DNA from: a virus
Length of the DNA: 64,000 bases
Direction: 5' to 3' (one strand)
Virus record (IMG/VR): IMGVR_UViG_3300045988_135886
Position numbers and translations under genes: made by a program
The notes under the pieces: generated by a model
Told to the model about the DNA's origin: nothing
Seen by the model: the letters and a program-made list of their open reading frames with translations, nothing else
The model's database searches: none
Part shown: piece after piece, positions 18,062 to 39,471 of the stretch
How positions within the stretch are numbered: position 1 is the first letter of the stretch
Layout of the letters: each line of letters begins with the position of its first letter

Positions 18062-18071
18062 ACTCTCTCCT

Positions 18072-19093: not shown

Positions 19094-19193
19094 AATTTCT
19101 TTCTCACATGCATCATCAATTGGTTTATTTAATATTCTTTTTCCTCTTTGCGTAATATCACCTCCATATTTTATTTCATTGTTTAACCTCCTT

Positions 19194-19243: not shown

Positions 19244-19326
19244 ATTTTCTCTTCCCTACAAAGAACCCAACTAAGAAACAGGCTAATAAGCATACCGCAA
19301 ACACGCCTATATTCAACACTATCATT

Positions 19327-20076: not shown

Positions 20077-20714
20077 TAGTCTCTCCCCTCATCAATATCA
20101 AGCCCAAAGTTTTTAAACAGTTCTGTCATACCTCCTACATAACCGGAACCTAATGCCTGGAATTTGAATCCATCTCCGTAACGGTATAATTTACCCATTT
20201 CTACTGCATTCAATTTTTCAAAGTTTTCATTCTCAGACAGATCATATTCATACTTATCACCATCTGGATTGTCGTAATCACAAATTGTCATAATTGCATT
20301 GGAGACCATTCCAAAATTCTGCATACGCTGTAAGGCCCTAAAAATTGTTAAGCAGATAGTAAATTCTGTTTTATCTTTCGGGAAAGTATCAGCATGCACA
20401 ATGAAATATTCGTCATAATGCTTTCCATTGAAAATCATTCCCTGAGAATCATCACCAGTTTTATTGTCTCCTGAATAGTCTACCCAAGGATATGCAGAAC
20501 CATCTTCATAGGTTTTATAGTTTACTAAATCTTCTGGATACACTACTTTACGACTTGAATCTGTTAAAAATCCATTGATATCAAAGTCAATGTCTGCTTC
20601 ACCAGCATAACGGTTCTGATCCCAATTGACTCCAATAAAGAAATTCTTAATGCCTGTACCATCTTCTTTTACCATACTAATTTTCTGATTTTTGCTCATG
20701 TTGATTACTGCCAT
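20076..20714 (-). CDS. terD: TerD-domain stress protein
   Basis: 212 aa. DIDFDINGFL and SGDNKTGDDSQG Ca2+-binding-type motifs. Confidence 0.85.
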   Translation of the reverse strand: MAVINMSKNQKISMVKEDGTGIKNFFIGVNWDQNRYAGEADIDFDINGFLTDSSRKVVYPEDLVNYKTYEDGSAYPWVDYSGDNKTGDDSQGMIFNGKHYDEYFIVHADTFPKDKTEFTICLTIFRALQRMQNFGMVSNAIMTICDYDNPDGDKYEYDLSENENFEKLNAVEMGKLYRYGDGFKFQALGSGYVGGMTELFKNFGLDIDEGRD

Positions 20715-20731
20715 ATTTCTTTATCTCCTTT

Positions 20732-21499
20732 TTATTTATTATTCAGCCAGTCTTTATACTGACGAAGAATCTCTGTATATAACTGTTCATCAGACATTTT
20801 ATTCATGTCTTTTACTGCTGTAAAACCAGTGTTATCATGTTTTCTACCTTTCATATCATCAAGAGATTTTAAATAGTCAAAATCTTCATCTCCAATTCCT
20901 ATGAACTGCACGAAGATGTTGTACTCTGAAAGCTCTTTAATAACTGCATTGGTGGCAAAAGTATCACTGTTCTCACCATCTGTAATAAAAATGATAAATG
21001 CTGGAATCTCACTTGGCTCAATATCTTTATAATATGTAACCATTTCTTTCAATACAGGAGCATAATTAGTACCACCCATATACATATGAGCTTTTTTCAT
21101 AACATTTTTAACATAACTACTATAATTATCAGCGTTAGCAGCTTTTAAGCGCTCTGCTCCATTTGAGAACAGCCAACTCTCAAGTTCTCCATTATCGTCA
21201 AATCTTAGAGCAATAGGCAACAAACGAGAAATGGTTTCCTGTACAGATCCATTATCATACAGCCAATCCATACTTCCTGAATAATCCATTGCAAGAGCTA
21301 CTCTAGCCGTATGTTTTGTCATATCAATCTTGCTTCCCTTAGACATATCAATAAGTACTTTGCCAAGATTTTCATTGTGCTTAGACATATCAATTGTCTG
21401 TAACTTTTCTTCATATACAGGTTGCTGAGTTACAGCAGAAGATAACTCTACTGCTGCTTCCTCATCTTTTTTTCCGAATAATTTTCCCAAAAATCCCAT
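20732..21499 (-). CDS. vWA-domain protein (TerF/TerY-like)
   Basis: 255 aa. MIDAS-type DYSGSM and FITDGENSD motifs. Adjacent to TerD. Confidence 0.7.
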   Translation of the reverse strand: MGFLGKLFGKKDEEAAVELSSAVTQQPVYEEKLQTIDMSKHNENLGKVLIDMSKGSKIDMTKHTARVALAMDYSGSMDWLYDNGSVQETISRLLPIALRFDDNGELESWLFSNGAERLKAANADNYSSYVKNVMKKAHMYMGGTNYAPVLKEMVTYYKDIEPSEIPAFIIFITDGENSDTFATNAVIKELSEYNIFVQFIGIGDEDFDYLKSLDDMKGRKHDNTGFTAVKDMNKMSDEQLYTEILRQYKDWLNNK

Positions 21500-21500
21500 T

Positions 21501-24122
21501 TTAGTTACTTCCTTTCTTACAAATTGCTTTTCTAATCCAATCTACAGGCACAACCATAAATGCTGTCACTAAGACTACAATCCACTGTTTAGCATCCATT
21601 GGAGTTGTCTGTACTAGATTTCCTACAAAGTTACACAAAACTACAGTCATTGCAAAAATACCCAATGCGATATACACAAATAATTTGTTATTTTTAATTC
21701 CTTTGAAAAGATTCATACTATCTGTTCTAATAGTGAATCCATTAAATACTGCCATTAGACACAATAAAGCGAATCTCGCTGTCATAGCCGAAAGTTTTGT
21801 TGTAAACATATTTCCAACTGGACCAAATGTAATTACACCAAATAAAGCAATAAATACAATTGAACTTAATGCAATTCTCCCTTTCGCTCCACGGATAAAT
21901 AATCCGGATCCTTTCATGATAGGCTCTTCATTCATATATTCCTCTTTTGGCGGTTCTCCACCAAAGCTTAATGAGTTAAGTGAATCCATGATGATATTTA
22001 CAATAAGGATCTGAACTGCTGCTAATAGAGCAGAGCCACCAGAAATAATTGGAAATACCATACTTAAGATCAACAACGAAATATTGATAGGTAGCTGGAA
22101 TTCAAGGAACATCATAATGTTATGCATAAATGTTCTACCAAGTTCGACTGCCTTTACCACACTTGCAAAATTATTGTCTGTCAAAACAATATCTGCTGCT
22201 TCTTTTGCTACATCAGATCCGTCTTGCATTCCAAAGCCTACATCTGCTTTCTTTAGTGCAGGAGCATCGTTCACACCGTCTCCGGTCATTGCCACAGACA
22301 TTCCAATTTCTTGCGCTAATGTTACAAGACGAAGCTTCGTATTCGGTGAGCATCTGGAAATTACTCTTAACTGTGGAATAATTTCTTTTACTTTTACATC
22401 TGACATTGCCTCAAACTCATCATTGGTAACTGCTAAGTCTCCAGGCTTATAAATGCCAGCTTCCATAGCAACAGCCTTAGCAGTCTCCATACAGTCACCA
22501 GTAATTTCAATTACCTGAATTCCAGCTTTATGAGCAATTTTTACTGCTTCTGGAACTTCATTCCTAACCGGGTCAACAACTCCAATGACTCCAAGGAGAT
22601 TCATTTCATCGGGGAGACCATCATCAGTTTTATCTGAGATAGTCAATGCAATACATCTCATTGCCTTCTCTGTCAATCCCTTAATATGGCTCTTTAAAGC
22701 TTTTCTTTTTTCTTCTGTCAGCTCAGTTGCAATGCCATCATTATCAAGATAAAATTTACACTTCTCAATTAATTTCTCTGGTGCGCCTTTATAAACAGTA
22801 AAATCATTTGCTCCATTATTTAAAGTAACTGCAGAGAATTTATTTTCACTACTAAATGGAACACGTTTTTTCATGATAGCTTTATTCTGTATTTTTTGTG
22901 CATCTTCAGGAGAAAGCATATCAAGCACTGCTCGATCAATTGAATTGCCACCAGTGATATTCCCATTAGAATCAAACACTGCACTATTATTCATACAAAT
23001 GTTTAAATCAATTAGCTCGTTGAGCGGACTTTCCTTATTAAAAATATCCTGACAGTTACCGTTAATCATAACTGTAGAAGTCATTTCACCTGTTGTGAGA
23101 GTTCCTGTCTTATCCGTACAAATTAAATTAACATATGCCAATTCAGGAATTTTACCAGTATTCTTCGCAAGAATATTGAATTTTTCCATTGTCGATACAT
23201 TCTGTTTAGTTACAAGTTTTACAATGAGTGGCAGACCTTCCGGTACAGCCGCAACAATAATTGTTAATGCATTTGAGATATTCTGTGCTACTTTCTGAAT
23301 ATTTTCAAGAATGTTTCCTGAGAAATACTGACTTAAACTTCCAGCATTTAAGATACCTGTAATTGTCATAATTACAAATGCTAATACTGCCGCAATTGTT
23401 CCCCATTTTGAAATAAAATCACACAAATGATCCAGAGCAATATCAAGAGCTGTCTTAGGAGGCTCTAAAGTCTGCATTTTGACAAGAGTATCACCGTTAA
23501 CTGTATTAACACCAACATCTGTAACAATCATTTTTCCTTCACCAGACATAATAACTGTTCCTGCAAAGAGCGAACACTGATCCGTATATGCAGCAGTAGA
23601 TGTTGTTTTAACATGCTTATAATTAGCACTAGGAATTTTTCTACATTCTTTTGTCTCTCCATTGATAGCGGCATTATTAACAGAAATTTCTCCTTCAACA
23701 ATAAAACCATCTGCAAAAATCTCTTGTCCAGTTCTCAATAAAACTAAATCACCTACTACCAGATCATCTTTATTAATTGTCTGTACGCTTCCATCTCGAA
23801 CAACATCACAATATCTAACTGCCGTTTTTGCTCTTAACTCTGCTGCAGATTTCTGTATTCCTAGACCTGTCTTAACAGCAATTTCAGTAACAATAGCTAA
23901 AACTACTATAATCATTACAGGTTCAGAAAGAGCCATTACTCCCATAGCTCCTAGAACTAACTGGAATAAAGCAATTATTATTAGAATCATAGTAATTGGC
24001 TCAGTTAATGCTTCCTTAGCAAAATGATACCATTTTTTCAATTCAGGTTCCGGAAGCTTATTACTTCCATATGTAGTCCTACTAACCCCTACTTCGCTAC
24101 TTTTTAATCCATTAAAATTCAT
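21501..24122 (-). CDS. P2-type cation (Ca2+)-transporting P-type ATPase
   Basis: 873 aa. CTDKTGTLT, TGDGVNDAPALKKADVG and VPEGLP in the TM4 region. No CPC or N-terminal CxxC heavy-metal motifs. Confidence 0.9.
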   Translation of the reverse strand: MNFNGLKSSEVGVSRTTYGSNKLPEPELKKWYHFAKEALTEPITMILIIIALFQLVLGAMGVMALSEPVMIIVVLAIVTEIAVKTGLGIQKSAAELRAKTAVRYCDVVRDGSVQTINKDDLVVGDLVLLRTGQEIFADGFIVEGEISVNNAAINGETKECRKIPSANYKHVKTTSTAAYTDQCSLFAGTVIMSGEGKMIVTDVGVNTVNGDTLVKMQTLEPPKTALDIALDHLCDFISKWGTIAAVLAFVIMTITGILNAGSLSQYFSGNILENIQKVAQNISNALTIIVAAVPEGLPLIVKLVTKQNVSTMEKFNILAKNTGKIPELAYVNLICTDKTGTLTTGEMTSTVMINGNCQDIFNKESPLNELIDLNICMNNSAVFDSNGNITGGNSIDRAVLDMLSPEDAQKIQNKAIMKKRVPFSSENKFSAVTLNNGANDFTVYKGAPEKLIEKCKFYLDNDGIATELTEEKRKALKSHIKGLTEKAMRCIALTISDKTDDGLPDEMNLLGVIGVVDPVRNEVPEAVKIAHKAGIQVIEITGDCMETAKAVAMEAGIYKPGDLAVTNDEFEAMSDVKVKEIIPQLRVISRCSPNTKLRLVTLAQEIGMSVAMTGDGVNDAPALKKADVGFGMQDGSDVAKEAADIVLTDNNFASVVKAVELGRTFMHNIMMFLEFQLPINISLLILSMVFPIISGGSALLAAVQILIVNIIMDSLNSLSFGGEPPKEEYMNEEPIMKGSGLFIRGAKGRIALSSIVFIALFGVITFGPVGNMFTTKLSAMTARFALLCLMAVFNGFTIRTDSMNLFKGIKNNKLFVYIALGIFAMTVVLCNFVGNLVQTTPMDAKQWIVVLVTAFMVVPVDWIRKAICKKGSN

Positions 24123-24124: not shown

Positions 24125-25159
24125 TTAAATCTCTCCTAATACAATTCTTTCATTGACAGACATTACAAACTCTTCTATAGCTTTATAATTTGGTTTATCA
24201 GGCAATGAGGTATTCTTTGAATCATACTCAAGTCTTTTCTCTAACTCGTTTACCATTTCAAAAAATTCTGGGATAGGCTGACTGTTTGCATCCAAATATT
24301 CTCCATTACGTAGAGCCATAAGAAGCTCATGATCATCTTCTCTATATGTAATAATTTTGCCTTTTTCAAGAATATCAAAACACATAAGATACAATCTCAC
24401 TAAATGGCACATATGCTTTCCTAGCTTATTATGTTCTATGGCATGTCTGTTTCTTTTTCCAACTTTAGAGTAATCCTTAACAATATTTTTCATTTCAGCC
24501 CACATCCCCTGATAATCATTCAAAGGATAGTGCTTCAACTGGATATCCATAAATACTTCTGTTTCATAATCTTCCTGAATACCTTTATCTACATAAAGCT
24601 TTATTGCATCTTCTGGAAAATTGAAATACTTTTCAGGGAAAGTATAAAAAGCATTCATAATACTATTAAGAACATGCTGCATTCTTTCTTCTTGCCCTAG
24701 CTTTCTAGCAGCTTTATTATCAAGCCTTCTTAGCTGGCTTGTAGCATAGCCTCCAAAAGAATAGATCGCTTTCTTAGATAAAAACATTTCAGCATTATCA
24801 AGAAGTTCTTGACCAATTGGATGAATATAAAGATAATGTTCCGGCTTCAATCCTATCAGCTCAATTGTGTTTGGGTTGCAGTTTGACAATAGAGTTATCA
24901 ATTTATTAAAAGAATAGATTGTTGTATCTGTTGTTTCTTCCGTTACCTGATCAAAATTATGTGTAGGAATCAGGATTTCTTCTCTTTTATTTAAAGCACA
25001 ACCCCTAATATCCAGATCGGAGCTTTCTGTATCTGTACCATAAGCATGAGACCCACCTAAGCCTAATAGAATTATGTTGCTCCCCAGGTGCTCGTCCGCT
25101 CTTAAGAAATCATAATGTTCACTTTTCAACAACTTCTTGATTTTCTCTATCTTCATCAA
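24125..25159 (-). CDS. Pol-beta superfamily nucleotidyltransferase (RlaP/YcgL-like)
   Basis: 344 aa. GLGGSHAYGTDTESSDLDIRG motif and the helical C-terminal KHMCHLVRLYLM segment. Confidence 0.65.
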   Translation of the reverse strand: MMKIEKIKKLLKSEHYDFLRADEHLGSNIILLGLGGSHAYGTDTESSDLDIRGCALNKREEILIPTHNFDQVTEETTDTTIYSFNKLITLLSNCNPNTIELIGLKPEHYLYIHPIGQELLDNAEMFLSKKAIYSFGGYATSQLRRLDNKAARKLGQEERMQHVLNSIMNAFYTFPEKYFNFPEDAIKLYVDKGIQEDYETEVFMDIQLKHYPLNDYQGMWAEMKNIVKDYSKVGKRNRHAIEHNKLGKHMCHLVRLYLMCFDILEKGKIITYREDDHELLMALRNGEYLDANSQPIPEFFEMVNELEKRLEYDSKNTSLPDKPNYKAIEEFVMSVNERIVLGEI

Positions 25160-25646: not shown

Positions 25647-26030
25647 TCAGATAATCTGTAAGTTTTCATCACCAATAAGCCATGCAGAATCTAAAATAAA
25701 ATTTTCATATGGATCACCATTGTCATTCCAGAACTCATCCGATCCAACCTCCCAATCGCCCAATGTTCCAGCATTAAAGTTACCGTATAAATAATCTGCC
25801 ACATATTCTAAAAACGCATCTGCAGCCTTATCATAATCTTCTTTTCTTATTAACTCTTCTACATCCGGCTCAAGATCAATCCATTTATGCTGTTCAATCA
25901 AAAAAGATTTAGCGTTGTCTCTTACTTTCAGCAGTGAGTTTTTAATGTCTGTCAATGTTGCATCTTTCTTTTTTGCAATGATATAACTTGAAGACGAACT
26001 ATTAGTAACAAATCCTCTTCTTATTTTCAT
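25647..26030 (-). CDS. NSSSSS-family acidic protein, paralog 1
   Basis: MKIRRGFVTNSSSSSYII N-terminus. The rest is Asp/Glu-rich. Confidence 0.6.
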   Translation of the reverse strand: MKIRRGFVTNSSSSSYIIAKKKDATLTDIKNSLLKVRDNAKSFLIEQHKWIDLEPDVEELIRKEDYDKAADAFLEYVADYLYGNFNAGTLGDWEVGSDEFWNDNGDPYENFILDSAWLIGDENLQII

Positions 26031-26425
26031 TAACCATCTCTCCCTTCTCCTTCAGCAACTTCTATATCAGCAAATCCATTTACTTCCGTAATAGCATCTA
26101 TTGCTTCATTCATAGAGAAATCATAATCATATACAGCATCACCCCATTCATCATAATAAGCATCGTTCCTGTCCTCAATTACGATATATTCTCCATCAGG
26201 GTGCTTTTCTAAAATGTCATCAACTCCATAAATGACCGCTCCGCACCAACTAGCACCAAGCTCACCGGACCAGTTTCTTTCATCATTTACACCAGTGACA
26301 TCTAATACATCAAGATTGAACTGATCAATTATCTTCTGAGCTTTTTCTTTGTCAGCAATCCTTGCAAAGCAAATAATGAAACTGCTAGAGCTTGAATTAG
26401 TAACAAATCCTTTCCGTATTTTCAT
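26030..26425 (-). CDS. NSSSSS-family acidic protein, paralog 2
   Basis: MKIRKGFVTNSSSSSFII N-terminus. Strongly acidic C-terminal half. Confidence 0.6.
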   Translation of the reverse strand: MKIRKGFVTNSSSSSFIICFARIADKEKAQKIIDQFNLDVLDVTGVNDERNWSGELGASWCGAVIYGVDDILEKHPDGEYIVIEDRNDAYYDEWGDAVYDYDFSMNEAIDAITEVNGFADIEVAEGEGRDG

Positions 26426-26627: not shown

Positions 26628-27776
26628 TTACATGTCCTCCATTGAATAAATTACTCTTTCTAAACTTCTTTTTGATTTGAAACACTTCTTAAGTAAACAC
26701 CACATAATGGCTTTTTCAGTATCATCTTCGTCTTCCCAATCATTTAAGACTACAGAAGTCTGTGTTCCATCTTTGAATCCTACAGTAGTTCTAATTTTCC
26801 CTGTAGCAATATCTTTTGTTCTTCCTACAAATGAAATATCATCTTTAGACAATGTTTTATAAACACGTTTATCAAAATCATCTTTAGATATAATGTATAC
26901 ATCAACGCCTAAAGCCTCTTTAATTTGACGTTCACAGCTCCTAAACTCTTTATCGAGTGCATGCTTATGATTAATAGTTTCTTGAGCCTTCTCTAAAGCT
27001 ACAGCAATATCTTCTGGTGAGCAACAATATGTCATATTATTATCCTCCTTGTAATTGAAATACGGCATTGGTTTCATTTTAAACTTATTTTTTGTATGTA
27101 AACGATCAATCCGTCTTTTAATTTCCGGATCATCGCAAATACCTGTACGAATATATCTATCTAATACTGCATAGGTAAATCCGAAGTTATCTTCATCTGA
27201 TTTACCGCATAACCCATCTGATGGTGTTTTCTCTACATATTTTTTAGGTAATCCTAAGTAATAACCGATTCTTTTTACTTCACTCTTTGTGAACTGTGCC
27301 AATGGAGCAAAGTCTCCTGCTGAGTCACCATATCTAGTGGAGTATCCGATGTAATCCTCACTAAGGTTACATGTATTAACCACTCTTCCATTGTGTGACT
27401 GCGATACCCCGTATAGAGTGGCCATTCTTAGTCTAGGAGCGAGATTAATTAATGTCTGATCTGTTACATTAAATGCAGCATCAATTTGATCAATAATATC
27501 ATCATAAGCTGATCCAATATTAATAGTAAGATAATCAATGTTTAATACATGCTGGCAAATATCATAAGCCACACAAATATCATCCTGTTTATAATTTGGC
27601 ATAATTACTCCAAGAACCTTGTCAGCTCCAATAGCTTCTACACATAACTCAGCAGCCACTAAAGAATCAACACCACCGGAGATACCTACTATAAAATTAC
27701 ATCCTGGGCCGTTCTCTTCTCTCCAATCTCTAATCCACTGAATACAATCATTTGTTGCTTTTTCTACATTAAACAT
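26628..27776 (-). CDS. nadE: NAD+ synthetase (NadE-like PP-loop ATPase) fused to a C-terminal domain of ~130 aa of unknown function
   Basis: 382 aa. GISGGVDSLVAAELC PP-loop. The NadE-like region covers about 250 aa; the remainder (from MTYCCSPEDIAVALE...) has no recognisable motif. Confidence 0.8.
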   Translation of the reverse strand: MFNVEKATNDCIQWIRDWREENGPGCNFIVGISGGVDSLVAAELCVEAIGADKVLGVIMPNYKQDDICVAYDICQHVLNIDYLTINIGSAYDDIIDQIDAAFNVTDQTLINLAPRLRMATLYGVSQSHNGRVVNTCNLSEDYIGYSTRYGDSAGDFAPLAQFTKSEVKRIGYYLGLPKKYVEKTPSDGLCGKSDEDNFGFTYAVLDRYIRTGICDDPEIKRRIDRLHTKNKFKMKPMPYFNYKEDNNMTYCCSPEDIAVALEKAQETINHKHALDKEFRSCERQIKEALGVDVYIISKDDFDKRVYKTLSKDDISFVGRTKDIATGKIRTTVGFKDGTQTSVVLNDWEDEDDTEKAIMWCLLKKCFKSKRSLERVIYSMEDM

Positions 27777-28269
27777 TCTGCTCCTCCAATTTCCACAATT
27801 CTACTTTAAAACTACTTAATTCTTCTTCTATAATCTTATAAACCACTTCCCAGTCTGCTCCTCCTCTTCCGCAGCCTATTTTGTATGGGAGTGCAATGGT
27901 TGTCTTATGAGGCCTGTTATCAGCATCAAACCAATAAACAGGTATTTGTTGTTGAATGAAATTTAATCCTTCTCGAAAAGCTTTAACATCAGTATATTGT
28001 TTCCCATCATATTCGTATTTATCTTGTGCAAATAAGGATAATATTCCTTGATTTTTCCTTCTGATAAAGTATTCGTCATATGTTCCAAGAAGTAATTCTG
28101 GATTAAACTCACGTAATTTACAGACGTTTCTATAATGTATATAAATACCTTCGTCATAATCTCTTAATGCTTTAGCAACTCCAGTATTCATTTTTCCTTG
28201 GCAATTAACTTGATGAATTATATAGTCGGTCTGCGCATCTACAATGTTACCTTCAATAATTTTAATCAT
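27769..28269 (-). CDS. Macro-domain protein (ADP-ribose binding/hydrolase)
   Basis: MIKIIEGNIVDAQTDYIIHQVNCQGKMNTGVAKAL...IGCGRGGADW. The start is moved to the second Met to remove the overlap with the upstream ORF. Confidence 0.75.
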   Translation of the reverse strand: MIKIIEGNIVDAQTDYIIHQVNCQGKMNTGVAKALRDYDEGIYIHYRNVCKLREFNPELLLGTYDEYFIRRKNQGILSLFAQDKYEYDGKQYTDVKAFREGLNFIQQQIPVYWFDADNRPHKTTIALPYKIGCGRGGADWEVVYKIIEEELSSFKVELWKLEEQNV

Positions 28270-28279
28270 AAATCTTTTC

Positions 28280-28687
28280 CTATAAATCCTGAAATGTAAA
28301 CTTCTCGCCACAGGAGCAAATCACTTCTCCAATAGTTCCTATTGATGTTGGTGTAAAGCACCATGTAAGAGAACCGCCTATGCAACCATGTCCCATTGCT
28401 CTCTGTTTAGAAGTTTTCAGACCATGTTTCTCAGCATCATGTTTTAATTCCCACTCTCTGATTTTCTCTTGTTCTTTTTCTGAAATTGGAAATCCTCTAT
28501 ATAAATCGTCTTTTGCTTCTTTTAACTCAGCTTCCATTCTTTGCATTTCAGAATCTTTATAATGCTCATCTTTGAGCTTCTTGTTTTCTTCTTCTAAGTA
28601 TTTAATTCGTTTTTCATAAGTGTCTACTTTATCAACAATCCCCTGACAAAGATCTGAAACTGAATCAGTAAAATATGTACTACTCAT
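28280..28687 (-). CDS. Hypothetical coiled-coil protein with a Cys/His C-terminus
   Basis: 135 aa. GHGCIGG...CSCGEKF. Confidence 0.5.
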   Translation of the reverse strand: MSSTYFTDSVSDLCQGIVDKVDTYEKRIKYLEEENKKLKDEHYKDSEMQRMEAELKEAKDDLYRGFPISEKEQEKIREWELKHDAEKHGLKTSKQRAMGHGCIGGSLTWCFTPTSIGTIGEVICSCGEKFTFQDL

Positions 28688-28704
28688 TTTTTATACCTCC
28701 ATAT

Positions 28705-29178
28705 CTACTCCATAAATGATGAAACATGTACGGTTACAAAATCACTATGTGCACGAATATAATCCAAAGTTTTAACTGTATCTTCTACAATTGCAATCTG
28801 AGATGGCTTAAGTCCGAGCTTTTGTTGCAGCGTTTGAAGCACAGTAAGTTTTTCTGTCTTTTCTAAAGTGAAATAGATATTATCATCTGGCAGATCATAA
28901 TTGTCTTTTATAAAAGCTCTTTTACCAGGAATTTCATTTAAAGGACTCTTTGAACAGGTATATACTTTATTCACGCCTTTATTCTGAATAAACTCCTGCA
29001 TTAATTTGATCGGACGCACATCTTTATACGGATTCTCACCGGAAGCTACAAGTCTGTCCCATTCATCGTCAGTCATACTATGACTTAATTCAGAAAACTC
29101 ATACGGAGCAAGTACTCCATCTACATCCATTACTACAATCACATCATCTTTTAATAAATAATCTGTAATTTTACTCAT
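28705..29178 (-). CDS. HAD-superfamily hydrolase (nucleotidase-like)
   Basis: 157 aa. VVMDVDGVLAP DxDG motif. Confidence 0.55.
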   Translation of the reverse strand: MSKITDYLLKDDVIVVMDVDGVLAPYEFSELSHSMTDDEWDRLVASGENPYKDVRPIKLMQEFIQNKGVNKVYTCSKSPLNEIPGKRAFIKDNYDLPDDNIYFTLEKTEKLTVLQTLQQKLGLKPSQIAIVEDTVKTLDYIRAHSDFVTVHVSSFME

Positions 29179-30646
29179 CTTTGTTTCTTCCGTTTAATCT
29201 GTCTCTGATTTCTTTAAATATTTCTGTATGATATATTTCACCGTCTTTAAATACAGTTTTTAATGCCCCATCATAAACAAAGCTGTCATATCCATCTCTG
29301 CACCTTAATTCTCCATTTTCATCGTAATATACATGACAACATCCTTTATGAGATTTCTTTAAATGGCTTACATCTGTCTTTGGATCTTTGTAAATCATAA
29401 TCGGTTGTCCGTTAACTTCTCCAAATGTAGCTTTCATAGCAATGCCGAACATATCTCTGGTTACAACGACCATACGTCCATCAGGTTCTACAACTGCCGA
29501 GAAACAAAAAGCCCCAACTCCAAATACAATGTTGTTTGCAGCGAATCCTTTCTTCTCAAGTTCTTCCCATACCTTTTTTACATTGTTAAGAGTACAGCCA
29601 TCACCATAGATAATTCCAATATGAGGGTCCAGTACTTTGTAACCTTTGCTATTTACTGATCCTTTAAATGTATTCCAGAGTTTTTCGATAGTCTTAACTG
29701 AAATCTCTACCATATCACCAGAATCCGGACGAACCAAGAGCTTACCATTGTGCTGCATAATTTCTTTTTTGCAAGCTGGAAGAATATTGTCAATCATGTT
29801 CCAGTAATCATATGTATCAGATACCATGCTGAAAGATGCATTCGGATATAATTCTGTAAGTAGTCTTTTCACAAATGTAATTTCGTCTCCGTCCACAGCA
29901 TAATTTGAAGCCATGACCGCATGTTCGGTAGAAATCGCACCAATTCCAATATGACTCACGCTACAGTCATTGAAATAATATTTGTCCAAATAATCAATTG
30001 CCGGGATCGTACTTGTCTTATCAAAGGATAATAGCCAAGCAACGGAGCATCTCTCTGCTTCTTCCATACAGGACATTCCACGCATTCCAAAGTCTGAGCA
30101 GGCCATTTCAGGTCTTAAAATGTCGTCGCAGGTCTTTTTATAGTAGAAATTTGCCAGTTCTCTGTACATATGTCCAATTGTTGCATGAGCACACGGCTTC
30201 CAAAGCTCAACCTGCAGAATACACTCAATCCACTGCACAACCCATGCAAAATCTGGATGTGTATTCGTGATTTCAATGCATGGCACTCCCATAGGCACTA
30301 ATGTACCTTCCGGCAATGCACGGATCTGAATCGGAAGATACCCTAATTCGTGAAGTTTAAGGATTGGAGAAATATCGTAATTTCCTTCTCCTAACTGAAT
30401 GTCCATACTAATTGTATAAAGTTCTTGAACTTCATCAGTGCTTAATTTAAAGAAATCTCTTTTAAAATATGTAATAAGATATTCTTTAATAAAAGCCTGC
30501 AGTCCGAAGAAAACCATATGATCCTGCTCCTTTAACATTGATCTTCTCGGAGTCCAATAAGAGACTAACTTCGTCAATCCTCTCGGAAACATATTGTGGT
30601 GTACTTGTTTGTAAGTATCGCTTAACAGAATTGCTAAGGTATCCAT
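29171..30646 (-). CDS. NAMPT-family phosphoribosyltransferase (nicotinamide PRTase or NARP1 Namat-type)
   Basis: 491 aa. LLSDTYKQVHH, DFGMRG, VRPDSGD, IIYGDG, KDPKTDVSHLKKSHKG motifs. Confidence 0.85.
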   Translation of the reverse strand: MDTLAILLSDTYKQVHHNMFPRGLTKLVSYWTPRRSMLKEQDHMVFFGLQAFIKEYLITYFKRDFFKLSTDEVQELYTISMDIQLGEGNYDISPILKLHELGYLPIQIRALPEGTLVPMGVPCIEITNTHPDFAWVVQWIECILQVELWKPCAHATIGHMYRELANFYYKKTCDDILRPEMACSDFGMRGMSCMEEAERCSVAWLLSFDKTSTIPAIDYLDKYYFNDCSVSHIGIGAISTEHAVMASNYAVDGDEITFVKRLLTELYPNASFSMVSDTYDYWNMIDNILPACKKEIMQHNGKLLVRPDSGDMVEISVKTIEKLWNTFKGSVNSKGYKVLDPHIGIIYGDGCTLNNVKKVWEELEKKGFAANNIVFGVGAFCFSAVVEPDGRMVVVTRDMFGIAMKATFGEVNGQPIMIYKDPKTDVSHLKKSHKGCCHVYYDENGELRCRDGYDSFVYDGALKTVFKDGEIYHTEIFKEIRDRLNGRNKDE

Positions 30647-31035
30647 TATTTTTTATCCTCCTCTTTGTCGTTTACAACTTTGTCAATCTGGTCAGTAATA
30701 TAATCAACTACATCTTTGCCGGTTTTCCCAATCGCTTGTATATTATCTGTAGTTACATTATCTAATACAATCATTGTATACATTGTGTCTTTCGATGGAA
30801 TTACTGTAAAAAGTAAACTACTAATACAAAACCAAATAATCGATTTCTTTAAATACTTTTTGCATTTAATAATTAAATTATCATCTATATTATATCCCAT
30901 AAAACATGAAAACCGAATAATTAACAAAACCACTATTGCACATCCAAGTGAAAACAATACAACACTAAGCAATACATTTAAATTATCAAACAAATTAATC
31001 AAATAAATCAACCAAGGGTTAATAATTGGTTTCAT
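30646..31035 (-). CDS. Membrane protein, hypothetical
   Basis: 129 aa with three hydrophobic helices. Confidence 0.5.
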   Translation of the reverse strand: MKPIINPWLIYLINLFDNLNVLLSVVLFSLGCAIVVLLIIRFSCFMGYNIDDNLIIKCKKYLKKSIIWFCISSLLFTVIPSKDTMYTMIVLDNVTTDNIQAIGKTGKDVVDYITDQIDKVVNDKEEDKK

Positions 31036-31154
31036 AGTTTCTCATCTCCTTTATAATTTTATCAACTTCATATTCTCTTAAAATATCATCCACATCTTCT
31101 GTATGAGAATATCTATTAATGTATCTATATGTAGCAATTTCATAATCCATTGAT

Positions 31155-31361
31155 TCAATCTTCCCATTTGTATGTTTCTGTACAGTAATCTGGTAATTCT
31201 CTTAATGGACATAATTTAGGAATCGTTGAATGTTCTTTCCTTTTTAAAGAATTAATGTATTTATTTAATAATTGGCAATAATATCCATACGTTTCTAATT
31301 CTGAAAATGGGCATTCGTCACATGAATTAGGTTCTTCTATAATCAACATAACTTTACTCAT
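31155..31361 (-). CDS. Small Cys-rich protein
   Basis: 68 aa. CDECPF...C...LCPL. Confidence 0.45.
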   Translation of the reverse strand: MSKVMLIIEEPNSCDECPFSELETYGYYCQLLNKYINSLKRKEHSTIPKLCPLRELPDYCTETYKWED

Positions 31362-31413
31362 TATTGCTTTCTCCTGTAATTTCTCTTAAGCAAATACTTA
31401 TATCATCTAACCT

Positions 31414-32217
31414 TTATCTAAACCTCTCAATCAGTTCAATCTTAGGACTTTCCAGATTTGTCAGAATCGTATCTGTCGTATAAATCTTCTCAATCAATCC
31501 ATTGTTTTTCAAAAGCTCACCGTCATAAATCGTGTTCTCGCAATGAGTTACATAGAGATAAATCTTATTCACTCCTGCTTCTTTTAGTTTCTTAGCACTA
31601 TAATAAAAAGTACCGCCTTTGCTGCAGATATCATCTACAATAAGGATATCTTTACCTGGTAACTGATCAATTTCACCTGATAAATCTAAACCTTTAATCT
31701 CTCCAGTTTCCCAATCTCTATTCTTAATACCAAAAGTATATGGAAGATGTACTGCTGAAGAATATCGCTTCATGGATCCCGCATCCGGATAAAACATCAT
31801 AAGATTATTACTCGCAATCTTCTTAACAGTATCCTCAATCATTCGATTCGGGGATTCTACATGTACTTTATTAAATAATGCGGCAGATACATCAGAATGC
31901 GGATCTAAAACTTCTACTCTTCCAAAATGTAATGAATTAATAGTCTGAGCAAAATATTTTAAAGTAAATAATTCGTTCTCATGTTTAACTCGGTCCATAC
32001 GTGCATCTAGGATATAAGGCATATATAAATTAGGCACTACTCTATGATCCCAACAATATCTAGTAATATATTCAACTGCTGTTAATTCTTCCATTGATTC
32101 AAAGAACCATTCAATATTATCTCTACTCCATCCACCGATGGGTGGGAGATTCTTAAATAAAAATGTCCCATCCGGATATTTATCAAGTTTGATTTCTACA
32201 CCGTTTAATTTAATCAT
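31414..32217 (-). CDS. Ribose-phosphate pyrophosphokinase-like enzyme (Prs fold; candidate NARP1 Adps)
   Basis: 267 aa. YPDAGSMKR and ILIVDDICSKGGT PRPP-synthetase-type motifs. Lies about 0.8 kb from the NAMPT-like gene. Confidence 0.75.
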   Translation of the reverse strand: MIKLNGVEIKLDKYPDGTFLFKNLPPIGGWSRDNIEWFFESMEELTAVEYITRYCWDHRVVPNLYMPYILDARMDRVKHENELFTLKYFAQTINSLHFGRVEVLDPHSDVSAALFNKVHVESPNRMIEDTVKKIASNNLMMFYPDAGSMKRYSSAVHLPYTFGIKNRDWETGEIKGLDLSGEIDQLPGKDILIVDDICSKGGTFYYSAKKLKEAGVNKIYLYVTHCENTIYDGELLKNNGLIEKIYTTDTILTNLESPKIELIERFR

Positions 32218-32572
32218 TCCAAATCTCCTTATAGTTTATTTCTCGCTGATCAATGATGTTATCTCTTGTAAAAACAATCTCAAAATCTGAAATCTGCTTT
32301 GTACCAACTAACTGAAACTCATAAACTTTATATCCAAGTTTCTGAAGTTCAAGAACGTCAGTAAGGCTGAACCAGTGTTTTAATGTTTCCTTTGATGGTG
32401 CTGCTGAGAACCACTGTTTCCCACATTCTCTGTATAATTCACTATCTTCCATTGGCAGGTTTCTACTCAATCCTTCTGAGAGCTGGTCAAATACAGGATT
32501 CCACGTTCCATCAAAGTTTCTCCACAGTCCATGTTTTTCAGCCTGATCTTCTACTCTATATCCGAAAATCAT
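32210..32572 (-). CDS. Hypothetical protein
   Basis: 120 aa with no recognisable motif. Inside the NAD island. Confidence 0.5.
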   Translation of the reverse strand: MIFGYRVEDQAEKHGLWRNFDGTWNPVFDQLSEGLSRNLPMEDSELYRECGKQWFSAAPSKETLKHWFSLTDVLELQKLGYKVYEFQLVGTKQISDFEIVFTRDNIIDQREINYKEIWND

Positions 32573-32648
32573 TTTTTTCTCCTACTACATTAATCCGCAT
32601 CAAATCTTTGTGTTACTTTAACTTGATTAAATTAATCCACCTTATCCT

Positions 32649-33110
32649 TTACTTATGCTCAATATCACAGGTAGTTATTACAGACGGATTATTCAAATGA
32701 TTACCATTGCAGAAATTATTAATAAAATCCACCTGTCTTTGAAAGTAATCAATAGATTCACATAATGAAGTTTTCGCTTCGCTTAATAATCCTGCGACAA
32801 TTGTACTAATCTTAAACAGTTCATTTTCTTCATCATCATATTCAATACCATCTGCATGATTAAATGGACAAATCATCCCCTCATTTCTACATATAATAAA
32901 ATCACCATTCTTTTTATAGATTGAACAAACTAAAATATCATCGTCATAATGTCCATCAAATTCCAAAATCTGCAATGTTTCCACATCATTTTTTGTAACG
33001 ATTTTTGTTGTGATTGTTTCATCACAATCATTATCATATAAATAATTCTGAATATCCTCTAATGTAATTTCTTCTAATTTCTTCATTTCCACAGTATTTT
33101 CTCCTACCAT
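32649..33110 (-). CDS. Hypothetical acidic protein
   Basis: 153 aa. Confidence 0.5.
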   Translation of the reverse strand: MVGENTVEMKKLEEITLEDIQNYLYDNDCDETITTKIVTKNDVETLQILEFDGHYDDDILVCSIYKKNGDFIICRNEGMICPFNHADGIEYDDEENELFKISTIVAGLLSEAKTSLCESIDYFQRQVDFINNFCNGNHLNNPSVITTCDIEHK

Positions 33111-33111
33111 C

Positions 33112-33660
33112 TTATTTCTCTCCTATCACATTAATCTGGCAACTTTTCATCACTTCTAAAGCTGCTTTATGCTTCTCCGGTGAAGTCCCGGCACAGCATG
33201 ACGCATCAACTGTAATTTCTATATCCGGATAATGTGTTTTTAATACTAATGCATTAGTTACTACACAGATATCTGTGCATACACCAATAATTTCAACATC
33301 ATAACAACATATCCAATGGCTTATATTCCATCTATATCCAAAAGTATTTTTAGGATAAATCTTTTCCATTGTTGAAAGTTCAACATTTAATTCTGGAATA
33401 ATTTCATAGCCAGAAGTTCCTACAATACAATGTGACACTGGAAGTTTTTTGCCTTCTGGTGTTTCCAAATAATCATCGTAATGAGTATCAGTTGTAAAAA
33501 TAATCACATCATCTCTTGATCTATATTCTTCCACTTTTTTCACTATATTCGGTACAACTGCCTGAGCTTCCGGTGTACCTAGCGAACCTGTCACAAAATC
33601 ATTCTGAACATCAATAACAATCAAAATTTTCTTTTTATTTTCCACAAGTACTACCTCCAA
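33112..33660 (-). CDS. pncA: Nicotinamidase / isochorismatase-family cysteine hydrolase
   Basis: 182 aa. LIVIDVQNDF, TTDTHYDDYL...PVSHCI, GVCTDICV motifs. Confidence 0.75.
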   Translation of the reverse strand: MEVVLVENKKKILIVIDVQNDFVTGSLGTPEAQAVVPNIVKKVEEYRSRDDVIIFTTDTHYDDYLETPEGKKLPVSHCIVGTSGYEIIPELNVELSTMEKIYPKNTFGYRWNISHWICCYDVEIIGVCTDICVVTNALVLKTHYPDIEITVDASCCAGTSPEKHKAALEVMKSCQINVIGEK

Positions 33661-37785: not shown

Positions 37786-38691
37786 TCAATGCCCTTTAAC
37801 ATCTGCTTCATGTAATAGCATCACATCTGAAAACATCTGTTTTCCAATTAAATACTTATCTTTATTCTTTGCCTTGTTTGATTGTGACCATGATAAATAG
37901 GGATGCATATGATAATAAATCAAATTTGCTGTATAAAAAGCATCATATATATCTTTTCCTGTAAGTGCACCGGAAAAATCAAAACATGTTAAACATTCAT
38001 AAGCTCCAACACAATGATGCTGATAATAGTGACAGTAATCATCCTCTTCACCTTTTCCATTAATTCTTGATTTAGTGAAAAGCTTTCCAATATCATGGAG
38101 ACAGGCCGCCACCCATAAATTTTTTTCTTCTCTAGGTACTCCTTCTGAAACCTTTTTCAAATGTTTATAAAGAGTAAGAGAATGATGTGGATTCTCTTGA
38201 TCGAAGTCACGAGCCATATCTATTAATTCTTTTATATCTTTATGATCATCTTGTACAACTCTAATTTCATTGAACCCTTCATGGTACATTGGTGGAGAAA
38301 ATACTTTCCTCATTCTTGTAATCACTTCGTCTGGAACTGAATTTTCCCTTTTTGAGTTGTCCTTTAAACATTTTTCATACGTTTTCAAAAACATAATACA
38401 TGTTTTATAAACATGTTTAGGAACTCCTTTTAAAAAATGCACTCTTCTTTTCTTTACCAAATTAGTAGCATCATAAATAACCGAATGCATTTTCAAATCT
38501 TCCAGTATTCTACGATGCAGTTCTTCAAATACTTTACTGTTGTCTGCGTCATCATAATTATCTCCATACATTTCTTCTCTGAGTTTATCAGAAGAGTGCA
38601 CTATATAATCAGGATGAGTTTCTGAATACTCTTTAGCCCATGTACTTTTACCGGAAGCAGGTAAACCTACCAGCATAATTAATTCATTCAT
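37786..38691 (-). CDS. Polynucleotide-kinase-like P-loop domain fused to an HD phosphoesterase (Pnk-HD end-healing enzyme candidate)
   Basis: MNELIMLVGLPASGKSTWAKEY Walker A; C-terminal AACLHDIGK HD motif. The ATG at 38691 has a GAGGAG SD and a TAATG overlap with the upstream gene. Confidence 0.65.
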   Translation of the reverse strand: MNELIMLVGLPASGKSTWAKEYSETHPDYIVHSSDKLREEMYGDNYDDADNSKVFEELHRRILEDLKMHSVIYDATNLVKKRRVHFLKGVPKHVYKTCIMFLKTYEKCLKDNSKRENSVPDEVITRMRKVFSPPMYHEGFNEIRVVQDDHKDIKELIDMARDFDQENPHHSLTLYKHLKKVSEGVPREEKNLWVAACLHDIGKLFTKSRINGKGEEDDYCHYYQHHCVGAYECLTCFDFSGALTGKDIYDAFYTANLIYYHMHPYLSWSQSNKAKNKDKYLIGKQMFSDVMLLHEADVKGH

Positions 38692-39326
38692 TATGTAATC
38701 TCCTCTATTTCTTTGCAAATCTTCTCTGCTATTTCTTTAGATATGTACTTCTGATTAAAAAACTCTTGTCCAATATCTGATCTAATTCGATATTTTTGAT
38801 TATCTAAATTAGGCCTCCCTTCCCCGTTTACAATTTGAGGTAATGAAGCTGTCTGAAGATAATCTATATAATATAGATCTTCTTTTATACTTCTTCGTTT
38901 CTCTCTAATTGCTTTTTTTATTTTATAGGCCCAATATCCAGAAGTAACATTCAGTTTATTAAATTCTATATAGTGATCAAGATCCTGAGATATAAGCTCC
39001 AGTTCCTTTAGCTGTTTTTCTAAAGGTTTTCTATTACCTAATATTTCTTTAATAGGCAATATGCTGTCATCTATTTTCTTTTTATAATCACCAATCTCTA
39101 CAAGAGATTTATTCTGCTGTACAAAACCAACTCTCTCATCAACTGATGTTACTTTCCAAGGGGCGTATATGCTTAAATTTTTAGGAATTGTTGATATCCT
39201 GTTTAAAGCTTTCGGTACATTGTCAAACTTCTGAGCAGATTTTAAATCCACCACATGAGGAGGACTTCCATGTTTAAACACCAAATAATTTCCAGGATAT
39301 TTTTCACTTTCTAAAACATATCTCAT
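38691..39326 (-). CDS. Hypothetical protein downstream of the tandem strong promoters
   Basis: 211 aa with no recognisable motif. Confidence 0.5.
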   Translation of the reverse strand: MRYVLESEKYPGNYLVFKHGSPPHVVDLKSAQKFDNVPKALNRISTIPKNLSIYAPWKVTSVDERVGFVQQNKSLVEIGDYKKKIDDSILPIKEILGNRKPLEKQLKELELISQDLDHYIEFNKLNVTSGYWAYKIKKAIREKRRSIKEDLYYIDYLQTASLPQIVNGEGRPNLDNQKYRIRSDIGQEFFNQKYISKEIAEKICKEIEEIT

Positions 39327-39442: not shown

Positions 39443-39471
39443 AGTATACCATAGTCATTCTACCTTGTCAA
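39443..39471 (-). promoter_or_regulatory. Sigma-70-type promoter P2
   Basis: TTGACA (39466-39471), 17 nt, TATACT (39443-39448). The -35 overlaps the last ligA codons. Confidence 0.6.

Follow-up and report, generated by a model that had tools for sequence, protein, structure and literature searches.

What does a dense group of NAD+ and ADP-ribose (ADPR) genes in a phage genome do together? The question is raised by the window, a stretch of 64,000 nucleotides from the IMG/VR virus record IMGVR_UViG_3300045988_135886. Eleven open reading frames, all on the minus strand, fill positions 26628-33660 of the window (Table 1). A first-pass annotation had listed these genes and their motifs and had proposed a NARP1-type core, combined either with a hybrid pathway or with ORFs of no known family supplying missing steps. 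We recovered every ORF at its coordinates and every motif in the translations. The clustering is far beyond chance, with the gene set recurring in > 140 independent viral and ~ 50 bacterial loci. The gut-phage cluster looks like an undescribed variant of the system that rebuilds NAD+ from ADPR, apparently rewired from nicotinamide to nicotinic acid. The literature searched contained no published description of this variant.

Table 1. Predicted genes and gene parts of the island, in window coordinates.
Predicted product	Coordinates	Strand	Basis or occurrence
NadE C-terminal extension, 137 aa	26628..27041	-	16 loci only, all window-clade NadE genes
NadE, NH3-dependent NAD synthetase domain	27042..27776	-	Pfam NAD_synthase E 1.5e-47; TIGR00552 nadE E 7.8e-48
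Macro-domain protein, NARP1-associated (Adpp / Poa1p-like) family	27769..28269	-	phrog_335 'phosphatase' E 2.7e-35
ORF, 135 aa, coiled coil and Cys/His-rich C-terminus	28280..28687	-	48-99% identity, within the window's clade only
Capless (C0) HAD phosphatase, 157 aa	28705..29178	-	HAD motifs and AF2 model
Namat homologue, 491 aa, remodelled pyridine pocket; proposed nicotinate ADP-ribose transferase	29171..30646	-	closest solved structures are Namat
Predicted membrane protein, 129 aa, phrog_3878	30646..31035	-	PHROG E 6e-17
Cys-rich small ORF, 68 aa, variable	31155..31361	-	2/66 close relatives (L003, L036)
Adps homologue, predicted ADP-ribose pyrophosphokinase, Prs-like, 267 aa	31414..32217	-	phrog_619 E 7.7e-67
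ORF, 120 aa, phrog_23161, variable	32210..32572	-	PHROG E 7e-15; sporadic in close relatives
ORF, 153 aa, not a conserved pathway part	32649..33110	-	minority of L001-L066
PncA-type nicotinamidase, 182 aa	33112..33660	-	Pfam Isochorismatase E 1.2e-25

Core enzymes of the island

The Prs-like protein matched the Pribosyl_synth family and contained the motifs YPDAGS and IVDDICSKGGT. Compared with Adps of canonical NARP1 loci it scored 180 bits; the highest-scoring solved Prs gave 53 bits. In the alignment to ICP1 Adps, with residue numbering verified on locus L383, Y14 (F18 in ICP1), R73 (R87), H107 (H121), D145 (D161), K165 (K185), F204 (F221) and Y206 (F223) were retained together with the DDIC PP-loop, and F92 was Lys. 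The residues described as Adps-specific, namely K185, the DDIC loop, the F221/F223 lid and F18/R87 (PMC13586617), were thus retained. The NAMPT-like protein (motifs DFGMRG, RPDSGD and KDPKTD..KKSHKG in its translation) matched the NAPRTase and NAMPT_N families and phrog_448 (E 3.5e-161). Among solved structures it scored 372 bits against SpβL1 Namat (9w5x/9w5w) and 311 bits against 9ke8, versus ~ 190 for human NAMPT. The NARP1-type core was therefore upheld, and the two proteins fell in the Adps and Namat clades, not with Prs or NadV.

The isochorismatase-like protein carried the motifs VIDVQNDF and GVCTDICV, and its nearest solved structure was the P. horikoshii pyrazinamidase/nicotinamidase (1ilw, E 2e-13). 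Of 196 unique homologues encoded at related loci, 195-196 retained the catalytic D17/K104/C132 and the metal ligands D58/H60/H77. In NadE, the NAD_synthase match spanned residues 10-233 of 382, and the window protein had no glutaminase domain. Its PP-loop SGGxDS (SGGVDS in the window) was invariant in 179 homologues, except for one substitution at one Gly. With active sites essentially invariant, both PncA and NadE look functional. The NadE gene had been called a fusion; the C-terminal extension is real, but its family was not detectable, with no Pfam match even at E 10. The NAD-dependent ligase LigA was also confirmed, at 39463-41520.

The pyridine pocket and adenine clamp of the Namat homologue

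In SpβL1 Namat the amide of nicotinamide is bound by D215, the equivalent of D219 in human NAMPT. In the window protein the catalytic, ribose and phosphate residues were retained, but the pyridine pocket was remodelled, a new point and a difference from NARP1. K210, S212 and S239 occupy the positions of G213, D215 and A242 in SpβL1 Namat (G217, D219 and A244 in human NAMPT), i.e. G213K, D215S and A242S. We compared 147 Namat cluster representatives, 48 non-Asp and 99 Asp-type. Position 215 was Ala or Ser in 47/48 non-Asp representatives and Asp in 97/99 Asp-type ones; position 242 was Ser in 47/48 and Ala in 98/99, respectively, and position 213 was Lys or Asn in 37/48 and Gly in 97/99. F189, R192, R306, D308, G360, D361, G390, T398, R399 and D400 were conserved throughout the set. 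In human NAMPT, D219S is listed as switching substrate affinity, while G217R and A244M block an inhibitor of the nicotinamide site (PMC4919578, table 2).

The adenine clamp was largely kept in the non-Asp group, where F392 was aromatic in 45/48 representatives and R40 was present in 39/48; the Clostridium non-Asp Namat had both the canonical clamp GIGSYTYQYNTRD and R40. Unlike in NARP1, the clamp motif GSXφXφXφTRD of the window protein was split by a 10-aa insertion that removes Y396, and R40 was Met, which we counted against a route through nicotinate adenine dinucleotide (NaAD). The AF2 model of the window transferase (pLDDT 66) was too poor for pocket inspection.

Distribution of the gene set

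The viral comparison set comprised 207 non-duplicate loci, 143 with a non-Asp pocket and 64 of the Asp/Glu type. Nicotinamidase and NadE were both present in 139 of the 143, and neither occurred in any of the 64. Among bacterial genome loci, 47/49 with a non-Asp pocket had PncA and Adps, and PncA or NadE was found in 0/15 Asp loci. This near-perfect association follows phylogeny, which we counted against the pathway proposed below: in the NJ tree the non-Asp forms made one contiguous cluster, and statistically the association represents one event or a few rather than 140. The hybrid pathway of the first-pass annotation was supported and could be specified: PncA and NadE are the obligate companions of Namat homologues that form a subfamily with a remodelled nicotinamide-amide pocket.

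Besides being widespread among phages, the gene set occurs in Clostridium chromosomes. About 50 Clostridium-group loci carried adps-pncA-namat(Ala), mostly with nadE, beside NrtR, and the operon lay among housekeeping genes adjoining NrtR in 52 loci. The effector of NrtR is ADPR. Linkage was kept across different orders (PncA-Adps-Namat-NadE; Adps-Namat-macro-NadE-PncA; adps-pncA-namat-nadE with nrtR on either flank), and some operons were compact, with intergenic distances of 14, -4 and 17 nt. C. acetobutylicum has nrtR-pncA-pncB-nadD-nadE at an analogous place (PMC2330246), so adps and namat replace pncB and nadD between the same flanking enzymes.

Accessory phosphatases and variable ORFs

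The macro protein, with motifs NCQGKMNTGVAKAL and IGCGRGGADW, was embedded in many operons of the non-Asp type. The most likely start of its gene is the Met at 28269 (MIKIIEGN, common to all relatives) rather than the GTG at 28311. NARP1-AP has been described as NARP1 plus the macro-domain ADPR-1''-phosphate phosphatase Adpp (bioRxiv 10.64898/2026.01.28.702374). The island likewise contains a Poa1p-like macro protein, homologous to those adjoining both canonical and non-Asp NARP1 genes. Unlike in NARP1-AP, it is at least as similar to DarG-type and BT1257-type macro domains as to Poa1p; a profile of NARP1-linked macro proteins matched BT1257 at 3e-26, DarG at 3e-17 and the yeast Poa1p ADPR-1''-phosphatase (6lfu/6lfq) at 4.5e-16 to 7e-15. 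The protein probably feeds the pathway by converting ADPR-1''-phosphate to ADPR, as in NARP1-AP. Sister genomes have the macro gene near Tpt1, with one ORF between the two, so the predicted source of ADPR-1''-phosphate may be RNA repair and not aRES defence.

For the HAD protein, the sequence-only match was weak (TIGR01509, E 6.6e-6). The predicted identity was nevertheless confirmed by the motifs DVDG, S76, K86/K110 and E132-D133, all four invariant in a 31-sequence alignment, and by an AF2 model (pLDDT 92.7) whose best Foldseek matches were the capless HAD phosphatases MDP-1 (2wm8/1u7p) and KdsC. In P0002 and P0012 (646 aa), the domain and the Namat variant form one in-frame fusion protein; P0012 stands for 2406 member sequences. 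The phosphatase, often fused to the transferase, may act on some phosphorylated intermediate or by-product.

The 120-, 153- and 135-aa ORFs and the NadE extension are unlikely to fill gaps in the pathway, as had been suggested: they are sporadic or restricted to the window's clade, and the PncA-Adps-Namat-NadE operons of relatives are compact, without space for additional genes. The 153-aa ORF had no Pfam or PHROG match, the 135-aa ORF had no significant family in either, and the 68-aa ORF showed only a faint match to a zinc-binding domain. Most close relatives also encode the membrane protein, at 39-76% identity, upstream of their Namat gene.

Proposed pathway and alternatives

We give somewhat better than even chances to the island encoding a deamidated four-enzyme NARP1 variant that runs via nicotinate, with accessory phosphatases. 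PncA would convert nicotinamide from NAD+ cleavage to nicotinate, and Adps would form ADPR-PP from ADPR and ATP. The Namat homologue, lacking the amide-binding Asp, would join nicotinate and ADPR-PP directly into NaAD, which NadE would convert to NAD+ with ATP and ammonia. Adps and the Namat variant would thus stand in for PncB and NadD of the Preiss-Handler route. We know of no enzyme that makes NaAD from nicotinate and ADPR-PP. The likely roles would be to counter NAD+-depleting defences and to sustain NAD+ for LigA. The proposed route would cost one ATP more than NARP1 with no evident gain for the phage, which we counted against it.

The main rival, to which we assign a lesser though appreciable probability, is a PRPP-based Preiss-Handler route. 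The transferase would be a nicotinate phosphoribosyltransferase making NaMN from nicotinate and PRPP supplied by the Prs-like enzyme or the host; host NadD or a phage NMNAT would adenylylate NaMN, and NadE would finish. It owes its rank to sister genomes with 100% identical Namat, whose larger island adds Tpt1, a SLOG protein and a NadM-type NMNAT. These enlarged islands were not in the first-pass annotation, nor were the Asp-to-Ser change and the function that the literature assigns to NARP1-associated macro proteins. That annotation had found no NMNAT and regarded one elsewhere in the genome, together with clustering of the NAMPT-like protein with canonical NadV, as evidence against a NARP1-type core; the window indeed had neither motif nor homologue, but the sister genomes have the enzyme. 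The NMNAT (GRFQTFHKGH) adjoined NadE in 24/76 window-clade loci and also occurred in 5/102 other non-Asp loci, which again counts against NaAD. The degraded clamp of the window protein also fits PRPP use, as Namat enzymes retain some PRPP activity and double clamp mutants of SpβL1 Namat lost ADPR-PP use and retained that of PRPP (PMC12774641). However, the Prs-like protein belongs to the Adps clade with its specific residues, and the SpβL1 Adps yielded no PRPP-forming product. NMNAT was absent from 149/178 non-Asp viral loci; no Clostridium genome locus was among those returned by a jackhmmer NMNAT search, and of the 80 loci listed from the 97 found, none was on a contig with the same island type as the window. 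The Clostridium forms and most phage forms keep the adenine-binding F392 and R40, and the operon is linked to a macro protein predicted to yield ADPR and to the ADPR-sensing NrtR.

An ordinary nicotinamide-dependent NARP1-AP seems improbable to us. PncA and NadE would then be independent add-ons, raising host Preiss-Handler flux or clearing excess nicotinamide, and the pocket changes would not affect specificity. The core enzymes are NARP1 homologues, the macro protein fits the NARP1-AP pattern, and Ser or Ala need not end nicotinamide use, the human D219S being listed only as switching affinity. Yet the contrast in PncA and NadE between non-Asp and Asp/Glu loci and the joint change of three pocket positions would go unexplained, and a Namat that depends on nicotinamide would lose its substrate to the nicotinamidase of its own operon. 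Least probable by far is an NMN synthetase role for NadE, like that of the Francisella enzyme, with nicotinate passing through NaMN to NMN and an NMNAT of the host or the phage making NAD+. The Francisella enzyme 3fiu was the best solved relative of NadE (121 bits) and some sister genomes have NMNAT, but the score was tied with the conventional archaeal-type NAD synthetase of P. horikoshii (2e18, 120 bits), and M. jannaschii has a short NadE that lacks NMN synthetase activity (PMC3376133). Moreover, most loci lack NMNAT, and deamidation followed by mononucleotide re-amidation gains nothing over Nampt.

Relation to known systems

NARP1 consists of Adps and Namat (Osterman et al. 2024, bioRxiv 10.1101/2024.02.11.579819; Namat structure PMC12774641; Adps structure PMC13586617). 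The island shares with it a phage-encoded Adps-clade pyrophosphokinase near a Namat-clade transferase, both with conserved catalytic cores, and presumably the input ADPR and output NAD+. It differs in the obligate nicotinamidase and NAD synthetase, and in a proposed NaAD intermediate and four enzymatic steps instead of two. NARP2 (Nampt and NMNAT, KVP40 type) and NARP3 (PnuC and NadR; PMC13464706) also restore NAD+ from phage genes. Unlike these, the island has a transferase outside the PRPP-preferring Nampt clade and no NMNAT, NadR or PnuC in the window; a NadM-type NMNAT is added in only some sister genomes. Chromosomal Adps/Namat-type pairs, some under NrtR, are known from gamma-proteobacterial prs-nadV-nrtR operons (PMC2330246) and Paenibacillus foliorum NARP1 (PMC12774641), which as described lack pncA and nadE; the Asp-type bacterial loci with Adps examined here likewise had no PncA or NadE. 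Like a Preiss-Handler salvage operon, the island has PncA first, NadE last and predicted deamidated chemistry throughout, with NrtR in Clostridium. Unlike that operon, it has the Adps and Namat-like pair instead of PncB and NadD, so the ribose-adenylate part would derive from ADPR rather than from PRPP and ATP.

Organisation of the island

The genes called in the window lie on the minus strand, in AT-rich sequence (GC ~33%). From its higher to its lower coordinate, the island encodes a PncA-like protein, two unknown ORFs, the Prs-like protein, a small Cys-rich ORF, a membrane protein, the NAMPT-like transferase, a HAD protein, an unknown ORF, a macro protein, and NadE with a 137-aa C-terminal extension; several neighbouring ORFs overlap by 1-8 nt. 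All the motifs quoted in the first-pass annotation were present in these ORFs, and Pfam, PHROG and NCBIfam confirmed membership of the NadE, NAMPT, Prs and isochorismatase families. The HAD call was borne out by conserved HAD motifs, a confident model (pLDDT 92.7) and matches to capless-HAD folds.

The island sits among phage genes for replication and repair, including a split DNA polymerase, primase, DnaB, RNA ligase, a Pnkp-like kinase-HD protein, NAD-dependent LigA and an integrase. Megablast gave no nucleotide match to the island among GenBank phages, and at the protein level identity above 50% was found only in one unannotated faecal contig, MT835544.1. The promoter and terminator scan returned the same counts as shuffled sequence and carries no information on transcription.

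PncA has the Asp-Lys-Cys triad (D17/K104/C132, with K104 identified as the catalytic Lys by family alignment) and the metal site (D58/H60/H77), kept in 195-196 of 196 homologues. NadE scored 162.9 bits against TIGR00552 (cut-off 63.65), and its PP-loop SGGxDS was invariant in 179 homologues except for one substitution at one Gly. Among solved structures it scored equally well with the Francisella NMN synthetase (3fiu) and P. horikoshii NADS (2e18), a tie that favours neither NaAD nor NaMN as its substrate, and its C-terminal extension showed no match to nitrilase, i.e. no glutaminase domain. PncA and NadE are shared with the Preiss-Handler pathway, whose canonical PncB and NadD had been called unrecognisable here. 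We likewise did not find them in the window: NAPRTase equivalog models reached 15-25 bits against cut-offs of 297-503, and there was no NadD-like protein. The earlier suggestion that the unknown ORFs or the NadE C-terminal domain supply the absent steps was rejected as unlikely because these regions are lineage-specific, with no conservation beyond the window's clade; they gave zero Pfam matches even at E 10.

The Adps homologue

The Prs-like protein scored 180 bits against Adps of canonical NARP1 loci (the Adps genes adjoining canonical Namat) vs 53 bits against the best solved Prs, which places it with the Adps clade and not with Prs. The reference for residue comparison was ICP1 Adps, for which a structure has been published (PMC13586617) and 16 of 16 published residue numbers agree with the sequence. 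The window protein keeps the equivalents of the catalytic Lys185 (K165), His121 and Asp161, the PP-loop start DDIC, and the aromatic lid F221 and F223; its PP-loop region reads DDICSKGGTFYY. The Adps loop (DDIC...F.F) is remodelled and differs from the DD[MI][IV]DT[GA]GT[LI] of Prs. C215 is kept in 256/286 homologues and F221 in 239/286; solved Prs enzymes have I/V and I/L, respectively, at these positions. Two of the three ADPR-adenine contacts (F18', R87, F92) are kept, as Y14 and R73. The third, F92, is Lys in the window protein, and this position varies among canonical Adps too (F 23, C 13, I 10).

The Namat homologue: pocket and clamp

Among solved structures, the NAMPT-like protein matched SpβL1 Namat (9w5x/9w5w) with 372 bits, 9ke8 with 311, and human NAMPT with ~190, and is by score nearer Namat than Nampt. 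It keeps the equivalents of F189, R192, R306, D308, G360, D361, T398, R399 and D400, so the catalytic core is intact. Judged by the scores and residues of this protein and of the Prs-like protein, the core of the island is NARP1-like, as the first-pass annotation had favoured. However, alignment to SpβL1 Namat puts Ser212 in place of D215, which H-bonds the nicotinamide amide.

We compared the pocket across 147 cluster representatives at 50% identity, drawn from a scan of 1.8 billion proteins; roughly a third of these nearest Namat representatives are of the non-Asp type. Three pocket positions were altered jointly, and the ribose-binding, phosphate-binding and catalytic residues were all conserved.

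Pocket residues of the two transferase types (SpβL1 Namat numbering)
Position	Human NAMPT	Asp-type	Non-Asp type
D215	D219	D 97/99	A/S 47/48
A242	A244	A 98/99	S 47/48
G213	G217	G 97/99	K/N 37/48

For the human positions, a table in a review gives D219S as a substrate-affinity switch, and G217R and A244M as blocking the binding of the nicotinamide-site inhibitor (PMC4919578). The changes thus rebuild the portion of the Namat-variant pocket that reads the pyridine C3 substituent.

The adenine-selectivity clamp (canonical SCH motif GSXφXφXφTRD, together with SCL Arg40) is also altered. The window motif reads GVGAFCFSAVVEPDGRMVVVTRD, with a 10-aa insertion, the position-3 aromatic kept and position 7 lost, and Arg40 is replaced by Met37. 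The AF2 model of this protein was poor (pLDDT 66, and < 50 in the pocket and clamp) and was set aside for side-chain geometry. In phage non-Asp transferases (viral loci L148-L227, e.g. L169 and L218-L221), the clamp-helix insertion spans 9 to ~40 residues and varies by lineage, which suggests a rapidly evolving surface element. Three Namat homologues (P0179, P0189 and P0224) carry ~280-aa insertions exactly within the clamp motif, between GS[FY] and TYQxxTRD, with intein-like ends (initial Cys; terminal His-Asn followed by Thr).

Linkage of pocket type with PncA and NadE

The fetched viral loci numbered 66 for relatives of the window protein, 80 for those of SpβL1 Namat and 160 for those of more distant non-Asp forms. 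Six-frame ORFs were searched with iterated profiles, and the count covered non-duplicate loci having 4 kb or more of flank on each side. NadE and PncA occurred together in 139 of 143 non-Asp loci, the other 4 having one of the two and none having neither; all 64 Asp/Glu loci had neither. Fisher's test, computed ignoring the relatedness of the loci, gave p ~3e-49. Since the non-Asp transferases form one contiguous cluster in the NJ tree, few independent events lie behind the association, and its weight rests not on this p value but on linkage across divergence, the variety of gene orders, compact operons and intact active sites. The linkage holds down to ~40-45% transferase identity and through several orders, namely PncA-Adps-Namat-NadE, Adps-Namat-macro-NadE-PncA and the arrangement in the window, which is spread over 7 kb. 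In some compact operons the genes are separated by 14, -4 and 17 nt, leaving no space for others.

The Clostridium counterpart

The earliest-branching non-Asp transferases, with a clamp of standard length, are encoded on the chromosomes of ~50 Clostridium-group species and were absent from the viral contigs searched, where no non-Asp transferase with a standard clamp closer than 50% was found. They keep the canonical adenine clamp (GIGSYTYQYNTRD, R40). The C. intestinale order is Adps, PncA, Namat(Ala), NadE, NrtR, with ThiI, ferredoxin and TetR genes beyond one end and a pseudouridine synthase gene beyond the other. An adps-pncA-namat(Ala)-nadE operon with housekeeping flanks was seen in the Clostridium locus L308 and ~50 other genome loci (L306-L382) from many Clostridium species. 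NrtR adjoins the operon in 52 genome loci, upstream or downstream depending on the locus. Among genome loci having 3 kb or more of flank on each side, PncA and Adps accompanied the non-Asp transferase in 47/49, and NadE too in 30/49; PncA or NadE was found in 0/15 Asp-type loci.

Bacterial NARP1 has been described only as a two-gene, Asp-type module (PMC12774641). ADP-ribose is the effector of NrtR, and the C. acetobutylicum gene order is nrtR-pncA-pncB-nadD-nadE (PMC2330246). Set against this order, the simplest reading of the Clostridium operon is that Adps and the Namat variant take the places of PncB and NadD, with the first and last enzymes unchanged; nicotinate would then be turned into NaAD by this pair.

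Macro and HAD phosphatase genes

Poa1p is the ADPR-1''-phosphate phosphatase of yeast, and DarG and TARG1 represent related macro clades with glycohydrolase activity. The macro gene of the window lies 0.9 kb from the Namat gene, and its product is homologous to macro proteins adjoining both canonical and non-Asp NARP1 genes. The family profile matches Poa1p (6lfu/6lfq) at E 4.5e-16 to 7e-15, and the DarG and BT1257 macro domains no less strongly, so that its sequence is compatible with either activity. In a 2026 preprint (bioRxiv 10.64898/2026.01.28.702374), a macro protein of this kind, Adpp, was shown to turn ADPR-1''-phosphate into ADPR and to extend NARP1 to counter the aRES defence. As a Poa1p-like protein in a NARP1 gene neighbourhood, the window macro protein fits this NARP1-AP arrangement, as far as profile and position indicate. 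RyR-domain proteins are another NARP1 accessory.

In many relatives, the HAD phosphatase is fused in frame to the non-Asp transferase (cluster representatives P0002 and P0012, 646 aa), and one such fusion cluster holds 2406 member sequences. P0060 instead joins the non-Asp transferase to another HAD-like domain, which has a VDYDDTL motif.

Proposed route and the PRPP-based alternative

We lean cautiously towards the view that the island is a new, widespread, deamidated variant of NARP1 running through nicotinate and NaAD. It would consist of PncA, Adps, a nicotinate:ADPR-PP transferase making NaAD, and NadE; the transferase step would be an enzymatic reaction never reported before. Our full-text literature search found no description of a NARP1 variant with PncA, NadE, nicotinate or NaAD. 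With NARP1 the window shares the Adps clade, Lys185 and the PP loop, and the Namat-type catalytic core, but it differs in Asp215, in the interrupted clamp motif and in R40. Because it lacks two defining features of Namat, the amide-binding Asp and an intact clamp motif, the predicted system is classed as related to NARP1 and not as a member of it. It differs from NARP2 in having no phage-encoded NMN adenylyltransferase in the window; NARP3 was rejected, since it consists of PnuC and NadR.

The alternative is that the enzymes follow a PRPP/NaMN route instead of forming NaAD directly, above all in the window's subclade, where Met replaces the clamp Arg40. It also draws on the sister genomes. The annotation had found no NMNAT signature, and this stands for the 64-kb window, whose ORFs have neither an HxGH-type motif nor a homologue (jackhmmer) of the sister-locus enzyme; for contigs with the window's island type, no NMNAT locus was found among the 80 listed of 97. 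It does not extend to the sister genomes. A profile search detected a NadM-type NMNAT (GRFQTFHKGH; Pfam CTP_transf_like) immediately after NadE in 24/76 loci of the window's clade, 5/102 other non-Asp loci and 2/90 Asp-type loci, and this finding lowered our confidence in the direct NaAD route. One of the sister genomes is L002, whose transferase is 100% identical to that of the window. The sister genomes have a larger island type, with five additions: an adenylosuccinate-synthetase-like gene, Tpt1/KptA, a SLOG (YspA-like) protein, a short NadE and the NadM-type NMNAT. Tpt1/KptA, an RNA 2'-phosphotransferase, consumes NAD+ and gives a product that leads to ADPR-1''-phosphate, which ties the macro protein to RNA repair.

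On the fuller form of the deamidated reading we are evenly poised. It holds that this is a fourth NAD+ reconstitution route with a new reaction, which would serve Clostridium as NrtR-controlled housekeeping recycling of ADP-ribose and nicotinamide. Large gut phages would have acquired the operon and then elaborated it with clamp insertions and macro and HAD phosphatases, some genomes further adding Tpt1, SLOG and NMNAT modules.

Implications

If the transferase does use nicotinate and ADPR-PP, NaAD would be made directly from ADP-ribose by a new reaction, and the NAD+ cycle would be closed in a new manner that bypasses PncB and NadD alike. NadD is regarded as an essential drug target. 'NARP1' matches in phage and bacterial genomes would then comprise two biochemically distinct pathways, told apart by the G213/D215/A242 signature (SpβL1 numbering) in combination with pncA and nadE. 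A function would also be assigned to the Clostridium adps-pncA-namat-nadE-nrtR operon; we know of no pathway assigned to ADP-ribose recycling in Clostridium-group bacteria. The deamidated route would further predict which abundant human-gut phages withstand NAD+-depleting defences, and it raises the question of whether using nicotinate escapes what limits NARP1, be it host countermeasures or the loss of nicotinamide.

Other features of the window

Coordinates of the island, related loci and further window features
Feature	Position	Details
NAD+ island	26628-33660	minus strand
Larger island of L002	L002:5108-16095	
Clostridium operon of L308	L308:8639-13129	
DNA polymerase region	1-4567	gene split (1-1944, 3167-4567)
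LAGLIDADG homing-endonuclease-like ORF	2255-3136	between the polymerase parts
Membrane-associated gene run	16926-24122	unusual in phage
SPFH/Band 7	16926-17897	in membrane run
PspA/IM30-like	19330-20088	in membrane run
vWA TerF-like	20735-21541	in membrane run
P-type cation ATPase	21501-24122	in membrane run; 873 aa
RNA-repair-type gene set	11881-13188, 15045-15899, 24125-25159, 37789-38736	RNA ligase, metallophosphatase, RlaP-family nucleotidyltransferase, Pnkp-resembling kinase (AAA_33) + HD protein
Two adjacent paralogous ORFs	25647-26425	127 and 131 aa
MrpR-like core-binding-domain protein	41861-42775	
Tyrosine integrase	44018-45043	

Both paralogous ORFs start with MKIR[RK]GFVTNSSSSS and have no family match. 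Despite the integrase, the genome otherwise looks like that of a large lytic-type phage.
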